From contig NW_026943822.1 of assembly GCF_035594765.1 (NCBI RefSeq), forward strand, positions 25,178,968 through 25,242,774: 63,807 nt of DNA, in the 5' to 3' direction. The stretch is from Anolis carolinensis. Its lineage: Eukaryota. The notes under the pieces were generated by a model. It searched no databases. It was not told where the DNA came from and saw only the letters and a list, made by a program, of their open reading frames with translations. How positions within the stretch are numbered: position 1 is the first letter of the stretch; each line of letters starts with the position of its first letter. Made by a program: the position numbers and the translations under genes. Positions 17,781 to 61,038 of this stretch are shown here, piece by piece.

Positions 17781-20444
<2,664 letters not shown>

Positions 20445-23950: not shown

Positions 23951-26900
23951 TTAAAAAACTGCAGAAATGTTTGTTTACAAATTGCTTGCTCCAGGCGCTG
24001 TACTTGCTGTCTCTTTCCTCTCGTTGGAGAACACTCAACAACAACAACACCAGAACCAACTGCAGCAAAAGAGACTCCTAAACCCTTAGGCAGGAGAAAG
24101 GCCTGCTTTGGGATTGGATGGATTGGATGGAGACCTTTTCCTTGGGGCAACCGATTGCAGGAGACAAACAGATATCCCTCAGTCATCAGCCCAAGACAGT
24201 CCCTATTCCCTGTGAATCACGGCAAATGAAGAGGTTGGAAAAAATTGTGGCGAATCACAGATTGAAGGCAAAGCATCCCTTCATTAGAAGATCGATGCTT
24301 TGCAGCTCTGGGGGCAAATGGATAAAAATTAGCGTTTCATGGTTTCTGGGGACAAGAGACCCAGACAAATTGGTTTTAAGCCACGAGGGAGACCTGCTGC
24401 TAATTTTGAGGAATGGGTGCGACCGGGAACTCTGCTTAGCCCAAATTTCTGAAGTTATAATTCCACTTTGGACTTGCTGGTGTCGGTAATGCAAAGCGAC
24501 ACTGAAGATGATGGCAAGCTGATGAAGAAATGCGGAGTGCGTTGCAAAGAAAAGAAGAAGCCCAGCAGAGGAAGGAGAGACTCGAGGGGGCTGCGGATGC
24601 CGCAAGTTCGGTTAGTTGGATGGGCCTCTTTCGGGAGAGATTTATTTGTGTACTCTGGCGTGGCTGAACAGAGTTGGACTAGATGGGCAAGCCCTTTCTG
24701 ATAAACACAAGGAGAAAGCCAAACAGTGTGGGAGGGGAGCAAACGGCCCTTTCGTCGCTCCCATTCCTGGTGCCAAAACACACAGTCCCTCCTTCTTCCT
24801 TCTCTGGAAGGCCAAGCGGCCAAAGACAAAGCCATGTGAGCCCAGGGAGAGGCCACGGCCTGGCTGGACACTTGGTGGGACAAGGCCAAGAGGAGGGCTG
24901 CCCTTTCCTTGTGCCATTGGGGAGGGGAAAGCAGCCTCCGGGGCTGGAAAAGGGACCCATCCCTTTTGCAAAAGGCACACCTCCAAATATTAGTATTTAC
25001 TCAAATCTCACCTTTTTATGCTCAATTACCTTCCCAAAATGAGGGTGTGCATTAAATTCGCGTAATGTGGCAATCTTAGTGTTGAGCCAAAGCCAAAGGG
25101 GAAGCCGATTTGGGAGCTCCTCTTTGAGGGATACCATCTCTACAGCATTGATCACACATAAGGTTTTGTTTTCCATCAATGGAAGCTTTGGTGTCCTAAC
25201 ACTCATTCAACTGTAATGGCCAATGACAAAGAGCACACTTTTTGCCTCTCTGCGTTGCATTCGGCAGCAAATCCTTTCTTTGGTTCCAGGGTTTTGAAAA
25301 TGGAGGTGCGCATTAGATTCAATGGCACATGAAACTTGAATCGTTACGGGTATATTTACTTACTCAGACCCAAGCCTGTGTGCGATCCCTGGCCAGGAAG
25401 GAAGGAAACAGGGCGGCTGTGGCTTATCTTTTGCTCCTGCTTCTCTGGGTGAAGGGGCCCGAGCGAGGCCTCTCCCTCCGGCCCACCCCTCTCCACCCCA
25501 CACTTCTTCTCCTCCTTCTCCCTGACCCCTTTCTCTGCCTCGCCTTTGCAAACTTCAAAGCGGAAGCAGGGCAGGATCCCTCTCTGCGGTTTCCTTGCCA
25601 GGAGGAGAGCCGTCCGAGCTCCAGGCCCGCATCATATGATCCCTGTTTCATAAAGAAGGGCTTCTTTCTTCAGCCTGGTGGGAACTCGATTAAGGAGCAG
25701 CACCAACAAAGTGGCCTTTGATCTCTCCTCCGACTAAGAGCATTACGGTCCTGGGAAGAGAGGGATGGAGCCAGGGCGGAGGGGGAAGTGAGTGCCCACA
25801 AGGGCTTCTCTTGCCACCCTTGCAGAACCGACACGCGGTCCGTTTGTGGCTCTTTGCAATCCCAACACACCGGCAAGCCACAGCGGGCCACCAACAGATG
25901 TGTCTGCATTGCTCTTGCTCTGAAGAGGAGATCCCACTGCCTCGCGGGGGTCTGTCCCGCCCGGATCCTTGCCTTCCACCTTATTCCTCCCCGGATTGAG
26001 GCCTCTGCCTACAAGGAGCCTTCTGATGCCTTCCTGCGGTGCAGACCAAACAGGGAGAGAGAGGAATCATAGAATAACAGAGCATGGATCATCTAGTCCA
26101 ACCCCCTTGCATGCAGGAAAAGCACTATCAAAGCAACCTCAAGAGATGGCCATCCAGCCTCTGCTGGACTCTGAGGAAGAGAGTTCCACTGTTGAACAGT
26201 GAGGAAGTTCTTCCTAATGTTCAGCTGGAATCTCCTTTCCCGGGATTGCTCAGAGTCCTAGTCTCCAAGGGAGCAGAGAGCAAGTTTGTTCCCTCCTCCT
26301 TACGGCATCCTTTTCCTTACCTGTGGGAGGAAGCAAGGACGGGCGGACGGAAGACTGGCACTACAGGAGGAAGAGGAAGGGTCGGAGGAAGGCAACAGCG
26401 GCGGTGGGTCTCTGGGTCAGGGTCCGGTCCATCGGCCTTGCTTCTTGGAGGGAGGGGGCCCAGCGGCGGGTCCCAAACCCCAGAGCAGGCAGGCAACAGG
26501 CAGAGAGAGAGAGAGAGAGAGAGAGAGGTTCCTAATGACTCTCAGCTGCTTGTCATGTGCTTCTGGCTGCCCTGGTCAAGTGATGGGGAGCTCCTGTGCC
26601 AGCCCCACGGCCCTCCCCTTGCAGAAGGGGCCTCCCTTGGACCTCAAGGAAGAAGGAAGGAAGGATGGAAAGAAGGGGAGCAAAGGGAAGCAGTCCCTTT
26701 CCATCCGTGGGACTTGGCTGCCGTTGCTGCTTCGCAACCCCACTTCCTGCCGGTGTTACGGCACTGCTTCCTCTTCTGCTGCGCCGCTTGCCCAACACAA
26801 ACACCCCTTGGCCCTTCCTCTCTTCCTCCCCTGCCACAGGCTGGGATGCAAGGGAAGAATGAAAAATATTTGGAAATATTTCATGAAAGAGTGGAGAAAC

Positions 26901-28500: not shown

Positions 28501-28624
28501 TGGTTTCAGTGGCTTCCCTGTGTGGTTGTGAGAGTGGTCTAGTATTTCTGTGAGAATACATCAAGGGAGCAGATGAAGAAACACAAACAATCTCCAGACC
28601 CACCAGCGCATTTATTAGCAGCCT

Positions 28625-29132
28625 ACTTCCGGACTACAGCTCCCGGCGTCCCTTGCGGCAGGGAGGGAGCCTCGTCTCGGGCCAGTCCTGCCCAGGCGGG
28701 GCTCCATCTCTAGGTTTCCACGCCGCGGCGCCTCCCGAGGCGGGTTCTTCCTTCCACAGCCCGAAACACGCACCGAGGGGCCCTGGAGGCGAGGAACGCC
28801 ATTCAGACGCGCAGGGCGCTCTTTCCCGACGCGTGTCGTGCTAGCGCTCCTCCCCTTTCTGGGCGGGGCCTGCCTCCTTCCGCTCCTCCCCTTTCTGGGC
28901 GGGGCCTGCCTCCATCCGCTCCTCCCCTTTCTGGGCGGGGCCTGCCTCTTCCCGCTCCGCCTCCTCTTTCTGGAAAACGGGCTTCCAGACGTAGACGCCG
29001 CTGGAGACGCCCAAAATGGCGGCCAGGAGCAACTGCGGGAAGCCCCGCCCACGGAACATCACGATTGGTTAAGCTTCCCTGTCCTGCCCCGGAAGTATCG
29101 CGAGATCCCACGCGAGGTTTTGCTGTACGGTG
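28625..29132. promoter_or_regulatory. PIGB/PIGBOS1 bidirectional CpG-island promoter elements
   Basis: ETS ACTTCCGG at 28625; ZNF143-type ACTACAGCTCCC at 28633; GC boxes at 28861, 28897, 28933 and 29043; YY1-type AAAATGGCGGC at 29013; ATTGG at 29064; CCGGAAGT at 29089; TATCGCGAGA (TMTCGCGANR, BANP-type) at 29096. Confidence 0.7.
28841..29059 (-). CDS. PIGBOS1: PIGBOS1 mitochondrial outer-membrane microprotein ortholog (72 aa, with a repeat-extended C-terminus)
   Basis: MFRGRGFPQLLLAAILGVSSGVYVWKPVFQK resembles the recalled human [31 protein letters not shown] (single TM helix). It lies antisense and head-to-head to PIGB as in human. Minus-strand AATAAA at 28611-28616. Confidence 0.9.
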   Translation of the reverse strand: MFRGRGFPQLLLAAILGVSSGVYVWKPVFQKEEAEREEAGPAQKGEERMEAGPAQKGEERKEAGPAQKGEER

Positions 29133-30802
29133 ATGGCGGCGGCCGCCGAGTCAGAAGCACGTCTCCGGAAGCGGAAGCGGGCGCCGCGTGGGCCCGGTTT
29201 GGAGAGCCCCGTGGCGGCGTCGTCGTCGTGGGTACGCTTGGCCTTCTTGGTCACGGCGCTGCGGCTCCTGAACGCCTTCCTGGTCCAGACCAGCTTCGTC
29301 CCCGACGAGTACTGGCAGGCGCTGGAAGTCGCGCACCGGGCCGCCTTCCGATATCCTTTCAGGGTGAGGTGAGCAATGGGAGGCCGAGGATGGGGAGGGG
29401 GCGGGGCTAGGATGGCACTACTCCGCCAATGGGAACCAAGGCTGGGAAGGGGGCGGGACCGGGATGGCTTCAATCTACCAATAGGAACCGAGGCTTGAAA
29501 GGAGGCGGGGTCGGGATAGGGTTACTACGCCAATGGGAACCGGGGCCGGGCTGGGGTCAGAAGGCTGGGAAAGGGGCGGGACCTCGCTGAGTTTACTACG
29601 CCAATGGGGAAGGAGGCTAGAAAAGGGGCGGGCCGGGATAGGGTTGGTTGACCATTGGGAATCGAGGCTAGAAAAGGGGCGGGCCGGGATAGGGCTGGTT
29701 GACCAATGGGAATCGAGGCTAGCAAAGGGGCGGGCCGGGATAGGGTTGGTTGACCAATGGGAATCGAGGCTAGAAAAGGAGCGGGTCCGGGCTGGGTTGA
29801 CTCCGCCAATGGGAGCCGAGGCTGGGAGAGGGGGCGGGGCAGAGAGGAGGCCTTGTGAGAGGAATCCCAAACGGCTGCCTTCCTGAGCGTCTCCCTCACG
29901 TACGGTTTCCTGACGTGGGAGTGGGCGCGGGGCCTGCGCAGCGCCCTCTACCCGCTGGCCCTGGCCGGGCTCTACAAGGCGCTGGAGCTGCTGGGGACGG
30001 ACCGCGCGCCCCTCCTGGTGAGTGTCTTGTCCTCCCTCCCTCCCGCCCGCGCAGCAGGCCCCGCGCCCCTCTCCACGCGCCCAGGAGGGAACCCCGAGGG
30101 CTGAGCCCGCGCCTCCTCCTCCTCCTCCTCCCGCAGGTCTGGCTCCCGCGCCTGGCCCAGGCCCTGCTGGCGGCCGTGGCCGACGTGCGGCTCTACTTCC
30201 TGGCCAAGCGGATAGAAGGCCCCGCCGTGGCCCCCTGGGTGGTGAGTCCCCCCCCCCATACATACACATACATACATACCTATACACACACACATAGACT
30301 ATTTATCTATTTATCCAAACACACACACACACATATATACTTTATGTATATACATATCCATAGAGAATATCTATCTATCTATATCTAAACATGCATATAT
30401 ATATATATATATAAGGTAAAGGTTTCCCCTGACGTGAAGTCCAGTCGTGACCGACTCTGGGACTCTGGTGCTCATCTCCATTTCTAAGCCACGCCGTTAC
30501 CTTCCCACCGGAGCAGTACCTATTGATCTACTCACATTGGCATGTTTTCGAACTGCTAGGTTGGCAGGAGCTGGAGCTAACAGTGGGAGCTCATTCCACT
30601 CCCGGGATTTGAACCTGGGACCTTTTGGTCCGCAAGTTCAGCAGCTCAGCGCTTTAACACACTTTGCCACCGGGGCTCATACCCATAGAGAATACGTATC
30701 TATATATATCCAAACATGCACACACACATATATATATATTGCAAATATACAGAAAAAAATCTATATCTTTCTATCCAAACACACACATACACATATATAC
30801 TG

Positions 30803-57920: not shown

Positions 57921-60900
57921 TAATTGTGGTTTTTTAATTTAGATTTTAATAATCTTTGATGTGGGTTTTACGGCTGTATTAGATTGAAATGTGTTCAATA
58001 CTACTACTACTACTACTAATAATAATAATAATAATAATGTGTTTTTAATTTAGTTTTGAATAATCTTCGATGTGGTTTTTACAGCTGTATTAGATGGAAA
58101 TGTGTTCATGACGGGATCGCGGGATCGCGGATTGACGTCTTTGCTTTTTAATGAGTCCCGATGGGGCAGAAAAGCGGGATGGAAATAAATAAATACGTGA
58201 GAAATGTAACATTCCCCTTACCTTCGGCATACAATTCCAGTTCGCAGAAGGCCGTCCCACGCCGGACGTGAGCCTTCGCTCTGGCCTTTGCGTTGTCAGG
58301 GACGGGAGGAGTCAATAAATCCAAAGCCTTGAAAATAATAATAATAATAATAATAATGTGCTGCTTGTTCTTGAGGCTCAAGGCTTTAGAGCAGGCATGG
58401 GCCAACTTGGGCCCTCCTTCCTGTTGTTTTGGACTCCAACTCCCACCATTCCTGACAGCCTCAGGCCCCTTCCTTTTCCCCCTCAGCCGCTTAAGCGGCT
58501 GAGGGGGAAAAGGAAGGGGCCTGAGGCTGTCAGGAATGGTGGGAGTTGGAGTCCAAAACAACAGGAAGGAGGGCCCAAGTTGGCCCATGCTTGCTTTATA
58601 ATATCTGTTAAGGAAGACGTAAATAGCCCATACCTTGGAGGCATCTTCGATGGCCTTGTGCAGGTTCCTCAGCCTCAGGTGGGAGGCAGCTCTGTTCAGG
58701 TACAAGACCGGGATCCGGCTGTTGATGCGAATCGCCAAATTGTAAGCATTGACCGCCGCCAGGTAGTTCCCCGTTGCAAACATTTTGCTAAACGAACAGA
58801 AAAGCTGCGTAAACAGAAGGCTTAGCTGCCAGCCGAAGCACATAGGGACTCCGTCTGAGGCCTGGGAACTCACTTGCCCTTGTCTTTCAGCCAGTCGGGG
58901 TCTTTCTCCTCTTCTCGTAAATCCTCGATCTCTGCAGCGTCGGCGTCAATCATGCGTCGGGCCTCTGCTTGCTTGCGCAGCCACTGAGGAAGGGAGGGAG
59001 GTGCAACGGTCATTTCGGAGACAGACGGCCAAAGGAAGGACCAAGATGTGAAAGGATGATGGAAGAAAGAGGGAGAGGATGTATGACCAATGCAACTCGA
59101 TTATTATAATAATTATTATTGAGGTTGGATGGCCATCTTTCAGGAGAGCTTTAATGGTGAAGGCAGAAAAGAGTTGGACTGGGTGGTCAATGCAGCCTCT
59201 TCCAACACTATTATTAATTATTATTGAGGTTGGATGGCCATCTGTCGGGGGAGCTTTAATGGTGAAGGCAGAAAAGGATTGGACTGGATGGTCAATGCAG
59301 CCTCTTCCAACACTATTATTATTTATTATTGAGGTTGGATGGCCATCTGTCGGGGGAGCTTTAATGGTGAAGGCAGAAAAGGATTGGACTGGCTGGTCAA
59401 TGCAGTCTCTTCCAACACTATTATTAATTATTATTGAGGTTGGATGGCCATCTGTCAGGGGAGCTTTAATGGTGAAGGCAGAAAAGGATTGGACTGGATG
59501 GTCAATGCAGCCTCTTCCAACACTATTATTAATTATTATTGAGGTTGGATGGCCATCTGTCGGGGGAGCTTTAATGGTGGAGGCAGAAAAGGATTGGACT
59601 GGATGGTCAATGCAGTCTCTTCCAACACTATTATTAATTATTATTGAGGTTGGATGGCCATCTGTCGGGGGAGCTTTAATGGTGAAGGCACAAAAGGGTT
59701 AGACTGGATGGTCAATGCAGTCTCTTCCAACACTATTATTAATTATTATTGAGGTTGGATGGCCATCTGTCGGGGGAGCTTTAATGGTGAAGGCAGAAAA
59801 GGGTTAGACTGGATGGTCAATGCAGTCTCTTCCAACACTATTATTAATTATTATTGAGGTTGGATGGCCATCTGTCGGGGGAGCTTTAATGGTGAAGGCA
59901 GAAAAGGGTTAGACTGGATGGTCAATGCAGTCTCTTCCAACACTATTATTAATTATTATTGAGGTTGGATGGCCATCTGTCGGGGGAGCTTTAATGGTGA
60001 AGGCAGAAAAGGGTTAGACTGGATGGTCAATGCAGTCTCTTCCAACACTATTATTAATTATTATTGAGGTTGGATGGCCATCTGTCGGGGGAGCTTTAAT
60101 GGTGAAGGCAGAAAAGGGTTAGACTGGATGGTCAATGCAGCCTCTTCCAACACTATTATTAATTATTATTGAGGTTGGATGGCCATCTGTCGGGGGAGCT
60201 TTAATGGTGAAGGCAGAAAAGGGTTAGACTGGATGGTCAATGCAGTCTCTTCCAACACTATTATTAATTATTATTGAGGTTGGATGGCCATCTGTCGGGG
60301 GAGCTTTAATGGTGAAGGCAGAAAAGGATTGGACTGGATGGTCAATGCAGTCTCTTCCAACACTATTATTATTTATTATTGAGGTTGGATGGCCATCTGT
60401 CGGGGGAGCTTTAATGGTGAAGGCAGAAAAGGATTGGACTGGATGGTCAATGCAGTCTCTTCCAACACTATTATTAATTATTATTGAGGTTGGATGGCCA
60501 TCTGTTGGGGGAGCTTTAATGGTGAAGGCAGAAAAGGATTGGACTGGCTGGTCAATGCAGTCTCTTCCAACACTATTATTAATTATTATTGAGGTTGGAT
60601 GGCCATCTGTCGGGGGAGCTTTAATGGTGAAGGCAGAAAAGGATTGGACTGGCTGGTCAATGCAGTCTCTTCCAACACTATTATTAATTATTATTGAGGT
60701 TGGATGGCCATCTGTCGGGGGAGCTTTAATGGTGAAGGCAGAAAAGGATTGGACTGAATGGTCAATGCAGCCTCTTCCAACACTATTATTAATTATTATT
60801 GAGGTTGGATGGCCATCTGTCGGGGGAGCTTTAATGGTGAAGGCAGAAAAGGATTGGACTGGATGGTCAATGCAGCCTCTTTCAACACTATTATTATCAT

Positions 60901-60989
60901 TGAGGTTGCATGGCCATCTGTCGGAGGAGATTTAATGGTGAAGGCAGAAAAGGATTGGACTGGATGGTCAATGCAGCCTCTTCCAACAC

Positions 60990-61038
<49 letters not shown>

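Follow-up and report, generated by a model that had tools for sequence, protein, structure and literature searches.

The window analysed here, a 63,807-nt stretch of the Anolis carolinensis genome, carries, in this order, RAB27A (minus strand), PIGBOS1 (minus strand) and PIGB (plus strand), the last two lying head to head with the PIGBOS1 start codon at 29059 and the PIGB start codon at 29133 separated by only 73 bp. These coordinates, given in a preliminary description of the locus, hold, as does its placing of GC boxes upstream of PIGB within the PIGBOS1 coding sequence (at 28861, 28897 and 28933, in a 36-bp repeat) and of a CCAAT/GC-box array within PIGB intron 1. The features of the locus are as follows.

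26321..26440, minus strand: exon without coding sequence that run X6 splices to 28604; it lies upstream of the coding exon of RAB27A, whose ATG is at 20390 (contig)
28598..28616, minus strand: PIGBOS1 poly(A) signal (28616-28611) and, 7 nt beyond it, a GT splice donor, with the exon ending at 28604 (contig, motif)
28625..28644: an ETS motif beside a ZNF143-type motif in the 3' UTR of PIGBOS1 (motif scan, with patterns presumed to be those of the two factors); the window has no other match to this ZNF143 pattern
28841..29059, minus strand: PIGBOS1 coding sequence, 72 aa, single exon (ORF, PF23670, alignment)
28845..28958: 36-bp tandem repeat in the PIGBOS1 coding sequence, 3.2 copies, 94% alike, extending the C-terminal tail (repeat scan)
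29013..29022, plus strand: YY1-type motif within the PIGBOS1 coding sequence (motif scan, with a pattern presumed to be that of YY1)
29042..29051, minus strand: GC box outside the repeat, in PIGBOS1 codons 3-6 (motif scan)
29060..29132: 73-bp spacer, with CCAAT, ETS and BANP-like sites inside it
29064-29068, minus strand: CCAAT box in the spacer (motif scan)
29089-29096: ETS site CCGGAAGT in the spacer (GABP site pattern from PMC10887517)
29096-29105: BANP-like site in the spacer, 9/10 match (BANP motif from PMC9363121)
29133..29350, plus strand: first coding exon of PIGB; ETS-type sites at 29165 and 29171 (ORF, contigs, squamate N-termini)
29351..29899, plus strand: PIGB intron 1, U12-type AT-AC, 549 nt (joint 29350-29900 in runs X6 and X9)
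about 29365..29850, plus strand: CCAAT/GC-box array, nine units with a period of about 52 bp (repeat scan, unit alignment)
29900..30017, plus strand: PIGB exon 2 (ORF, contig splice joint)

The PIGB start codon is the first in-frame ATG past a TAA at 29070 and agrees with the N-termini of squamate PIGB proteins, and a CpG island spans both first exons (GC 0.63-0.67 and CpG observed/expected 0.76-0.97 over 28501-29750). Because minisatellites are frequent in the window (13 loci in 64 kb), the presence of two of them beside a promoter is unsurprising by itself. The PIGBOS1 ORF matches Pfam PF23670 (E 5.9e-14; 52.4 bits against a cut-off of 27), retains the hydrophobic segment at about residues 7-29 (alignment A1) and is most similar, among named proteins, to PIGBOS1 of Anolis sagrei ordinatus (65% identity). 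The outer mitochondrial membrane location of PIGBOS1 and its role in the UPR come from mammalian data, and residues 30-36 of the human protein are needed for CLCC1 binding (PMC6814811). The anole protein differs from the human one both in length (72 versus 54 aa, with a repeat-extended tail) and in these residues, 0/7 of which are identical to those of the mammalian sequence P0014.

Four of 24 runs (X6, X7, X9 and X15) were compared, all as assembled contigs whose RNA origin was judged from splicing; X15 served as a DNA control, X7 was discarded as RNA evidence for being unspliced at both introns, and contig depth was not a basis for ranking transcripts. All four runs agree against the window at eight positions within 28952-29961, and the three coding differences that were tested leave the protein unchanged, suggesting that the window represents a somewhat divergent haplotype. 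In X6 and X9, which come from two studies, position 29350 is joined to 29900 with AT..AC ends and a conserved 5' site, which identifies intron 1 as U12-type and these contigs as mRNA-derived. Other U12 AT-AC introns share these ends, the conserved 5' site and the splicing, whereas the anole intron is almost entirely occupied by a promoter-motif array, which spans about 486 of its 549 nt (PMC6558932). No contig branching from exon 1 into the intron, as expected of a minus-strand RNA that starts within the array, was found in X6 or X9, in contigs from which minor branches get dropped, and the gaps in cover (X6 at 29351-29415, X9 over the intron) are no evidence of absence. Shortly after the start of the intron, at 29361-29375, there are two sites resembling U2-type donors, the first of which is lost in the allele of X7 and X15 (at 29364). 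In X6 and X9, spliced contigs cover 28919-29350, both start codons included, without a break; they give neither strand nor transcription start. They are consistent with a 5' overlap of PIGB and PIGBOS1 transcripts, and a short one inside the spacer would already account for them. Such an overlap, suggested previously for this locus, is thus plausible, all the more so because overlapping first exons have been published for the human genes (PMC6814811). No minus-strand ATG occurs in 29063-29372, an absence that is not significant (P 0.22).

The link to RAB27A comes from a single contig in one run: an X6 contig leaves at 28604, and its loose end maps to 26440-26321 with a proper acceptor and donor, indicating that at least some RAB27A RNA starts in this island. 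Presumably the human RAB27A annotation likewise has a first exon in common with PIGBOS1. The anole contig breaks at the coding repeat, short of showing whether the PIGBOS1 coding sequence is included, and RAB27A RNA starting here would bear six upstream ATGs. It is possible that the ETS/ZNF143-type pair at 28625-28644 constitutes a separate promoter for RAB27A or for an antisense RNA.

The same gene pair occurs in distant loci. A scan with a conserved PIGB exon yielded 38 metagenome loci, none recognisably vertebrate, and the PIGBOS profile, with Pfam PF23670 in agreement, matched three of them (3/21 among those with at least 900 nt upstream) and none of the other 35. In each of the three, the PIGBOS start codon lies on the strand opposite to that of PIGB.

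L007, 3493-3902: PIGBOS1-family ORF head to head with PIGB, start codons 253 bp apart (profile, Pfam)
L016, 409-839: PIGBOS1-family ORF head to head with PIGB, start codons 244 bp apart (profile, Pfam)
L017, 3573-3884: PIGBOS1-family ORF head to head with PIGB, start codons 152 bp apart (profile, Pfam)

Identity to vertebrate PIGB is 42-47% for L016, compared with 59-78% among vertebrates, and the nearest named match is from a coral (45%); a PIGB tree (88 columns, no starred branch) does not place the three loci, which are probably invertebrate. GC boxes are absent from them, as is any similarity to the two anole repeats, and each has two CCAAT boxes in ~1.4 kb. Since the pair is found in these loci without the repeats, a tight pair needs no repeats, and the earlier idea of a unit dependent on both is not borne out; A. 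sagrei, too, has the gene without the coding repeat. Judged by sequence comparison, the head-to-head PIGB/PIGBOS1 pair probably predates vertebrates. The U12 AT-AC intron of PIGB occupies the same codon in the window, L001, L006, L007 and L017, other loci having a GT intron or none, and no array is present in the corresponding intron of L007 and L017. These two loci also have a predicted 50-nt intron directly before the PIGBOS ATG, with identical bases preceding its donor, which in L017 lies about 93 nt from the PIGB ATG. In human, the PIGBOS1 coding sequence is located in exon 2 (PMC6814811), whereas the anole coding sequence abuts the spacer and the contigs contain no 5' UTR intron; the two-exon human form may be the older state, with the intron having been lost in the lizard. 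No RAB match was detected in the 38 loci. L001 and L007 lie on one contig as two PIGB copies ~24 kb apart, with a PIGBOS partner at L007 only.

The spacer had previously been considered to leave little room for two core promoters and 5' UTRs, but it holds a CCAAT box, an ETS site and a 9/10 BANP-like site. Among 20000 shuffles of the spacer, 2064 contained the CCAAT box, 167 the ETS site, 30 the BANP-like site and 0 all three together, for patterns from a panel of 16, in part picked after a first look at the sequence. Across the window the BANP-like site is unremarkable (0.59 expected), and only its spacer position is informative. The BANP motif itself has been described in PMC9363121 and PMC10206803. 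The GC box at 29042..29051 and the YY1-type motif both fall within the first 50 bp of the PIGBOS1 coding sequence. Bidirectional promoters show enrichment for NF-Y, GABPA, SP1 and YY1 (PMC10887517), and SP, NFY and ETS motifs work on both strands (bioRxiv 2023.06.27.546584).

With divergent starts less than 1 kb apart, a CpG island and GABP/ETS, NF-Y, SP and YY1 motifs, the locus belongs, by these features, to the CpG-island bidirectional promoters described in PMC10887517; it is a variant of this known type, an old pairing that is for the most part known already. Of human genes, 11% lie divergently within 1 kb of each other, 23% of those overlapping (PMC10887517, PMC8076222), and 582 human gene pairs overlap at their 5' ends with expression not reduced (PMC8076222). 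Compared with such pairs, the anole locus adds a nine-unit array in a minor intron and a splice to a third gene, RAB27A. Head-to-head pairs of deep conservation likewise form a class already described, exemplified by HSPE1-HSPD1 (PMC3514665), with which the present pair shares a deeply kept 5'-5' orientation and a short spacer, differing in that one partner is a microprotein. The closest parallel in gene content is the human locus itself, an opposite-strand pair for which co-regulation from one shared promoter has been proposed (PMC6814811); an array like that of the anole is absent from the description of the locus in the accessible part of that source. The functional coupling of the two genes envisaged in the preliminary description is in one respect already known from human, where PIGB and PIGBOS1 fall together under LPS. 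It is weakened by the finding that human knockdown of one gene left the other unchanged (PMC6814811) and by the divergence of residues 30-36.

The reading that we prefer, with a probability of about 0.6, is a head-to-head pair served by one CpG-island bidirectional promoter, in which the array acts as a lizard-specific activator and the coding repeat is incidental. The GC box and the CCAAT, ETS and BANP-like sites (29042-29105) would direct a PIGB start just before its ATG, while the minus strand would start further right under the ETS sites of the spacer and PIGB exon 1 and the NF-Y/SP sites of the array. PIGBOS1 RNA would then overlap PIGB exon 1 and would either end at the poly(A) signal at 28611 or splice on to RAB27A. 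Against such an overlap, dispersed initiation could bridge the 73 bp with only a short one. A more ambitious reading, unlikely as a whole, holds that an array of NF-Y/SP modules, set some five helical turns from one another and under motif-level selection, fills the minor intron and launches an antisense RNA that runs through PIGB exon 1 and encodes PIGBOS1, that a choice between poly(A) and splice sites 7 nt apart leads to a two-gene PIGBOS1-RAB27A mRNA, that copy number tunes all three genes and that the pair is far older than vertebrates.

Both readings involve the array. Its units are 51-53 bp long, with one of 71, and 51-94% alike, and it contains 8 CCAAT (either strand) and 7 GGGCGG motifs, compared with shuffle means of 1.1 and 2.2. 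Raw counts were dropped as promoter evidence, since a minisatellite at 59110-61005 that served as a control (105-bp unit, 18 copies, 97% alike) has 11 CCAAT. The arrangement of the motifs is more telling: CCAAT-to-GC-box spacing is 28-29 bp in 8/9 units, and with units 6-8 collapsed to one, leaving seven, motif cells are off consensus in 2/77 cases versus 65/245 for other cells. As the alignment was anchored on the motifs, re-anchoring was simulated (n=50000), giving 26 cases at a rate of 0.15, 1 at 0.21 and 0 at 0.26; in a single-anchor alignment, the GC box was changed in 1/24 cells versus 38/164. Both damaged CCAAT boxes (29373 and 29655) are intact in other runs. The 52-bp period, which would equal five helical turns, was given no weight, many periods fitting some multiple. 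In the DNA control X15, depth is 286 on one 50-nt piece of the array and 55 on its flanks, a hint of extra copies.

It is quite unlikely that the array is no promoter at all and instead represents a U12 splicing enhancer, acting through hnRNP H and G-runs or a G-quadruplex, or a neutral minisatellite homogenised by unequal exchange. This explanation draws on the 42 G-runs and 7 quadruplex-type matches of the sense strand, on the part played by hnRNP H in the recognition of many minor-intron splice sites (PMC6558932) and on the abundance of minisatellites in the window. G-richness nevertheless fails as an explanation because CCAAT, which contains no G, is the best-kept block of the array (changed in 1/35 cells versus 40/126 other non-G cells, p 1e-4). 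Even among G columns, those of the GC box are better kept than others (changed in 1/35 versus 25/119, p 0.006), although these p-values are optimistic, as the star-shaped null leaves out the common history of non-independent units. Moreover, L007 and L017 possess the same intron without an array. Motif conservation is the best evidence for binding of NF-Y and SP/KLF to what is likely a selected promoter module, with a presumed direction and target.

Slightly more doubtful is the proposal that the array is a promoter or enhancer with another main output, either RAB27A or plus-strand transcription that begins near exon 2 and so avoids the slow U12 intron. The motif types of the array act on both strands, low-depth X6 contigs lie within it (29416-29694), and in the same run the PIGBOS1 exon is spliced to RAB27A. 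However, PIGB exon 2 has no in-frame ATG, the intronic contigs may be pre-mRNA, and the six upstream ATGs speak against RAB27A as the main output.

The preferred reading treats the coding repeat as incidental, and its history agrees with this. The copies are 93-98% alike with one GC box in each, and there are three here versus two in P0001 (60 aa), where assembly collapse could explain the lower number. PIGBOS1 of A. sagrei (P0004) lacks the repeat and has G-P-D where the G-P-A codons of the present sequence spell the GC box. When the 36-bp unit is shuffled, 13% of trials yield a GC box, and the three boxes of the repeat, being nearly identical, count as one event. The repeat is read as a young tail expansion whose GC boxes are probably incidental. 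Local alignment of the coding and intronic units scores no higher than shuffles, so the units are unrelated and the independent origin of the two expansions, as formerly suggested, holds. Their reciprocal supply of promoter elements survives only for the array, which looks selected.

A strict reciprocal model, in which the coding GC boxes direct a PIGB start near 28960-29015 and the array directs that of PIGBOS1, is the least probable of the readings: although initiation is favoured just upstream of YY1 motifs in a human model (bioRxiv 2023.06.27.546584), which here, from the motif at 29013 on the plus strand, would place the start 55-150 bp beyond the coding GC boxes, and although the array looks selected and the contigs are continuous across the spacer, such a start would put before PIGB an 18-codon upstream ORF (from ATG 29016, in the YY1-type motif, to 29072, in frame with PIGB and in strong context), and the state of the repeat in A. 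sagrei, the chance frequency and single origin of its GC boxes, the spacer's own motifs and the occurrence of the pair elsewhere without repeats all argue against it.

Beyond the preliminary description, the analysis brings in the spacer's own motifs, the U12 AT-AC type of the intron and the splice into RAB27A. PIGB was not found in the accessible part of PMC3514665, the supplements of which could list PIGB neighbours, nor in the supplement of PMC8076222, and the available portions of bioRxiv 2026.01.08.697870 and 2021.10.01.462744 yielded nothing on the evolution of the pair. Neither the distant-locus pair nor the motif-keeping array was found in print, as judged from listings outside subscription journals; the RefSeq-type annotation of the anole may show the transcript structure. 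Three features appear to be new here: a minor intron that carries an array likely under selection, the splice into RAB27A, and how far back the pairing reaches. That the pair is present in distant loci, probably of invertebrates, points to a constraint of long standing, and these loci offer compact natural versions of the question raised in PMC6814811, namely whether PIGB and PIGBOS1 are co-regulated. In the array, only the factor sites are kept among the diverged units, which would make it a natural experiment on the way promoter strength is built up by tandem duplication.
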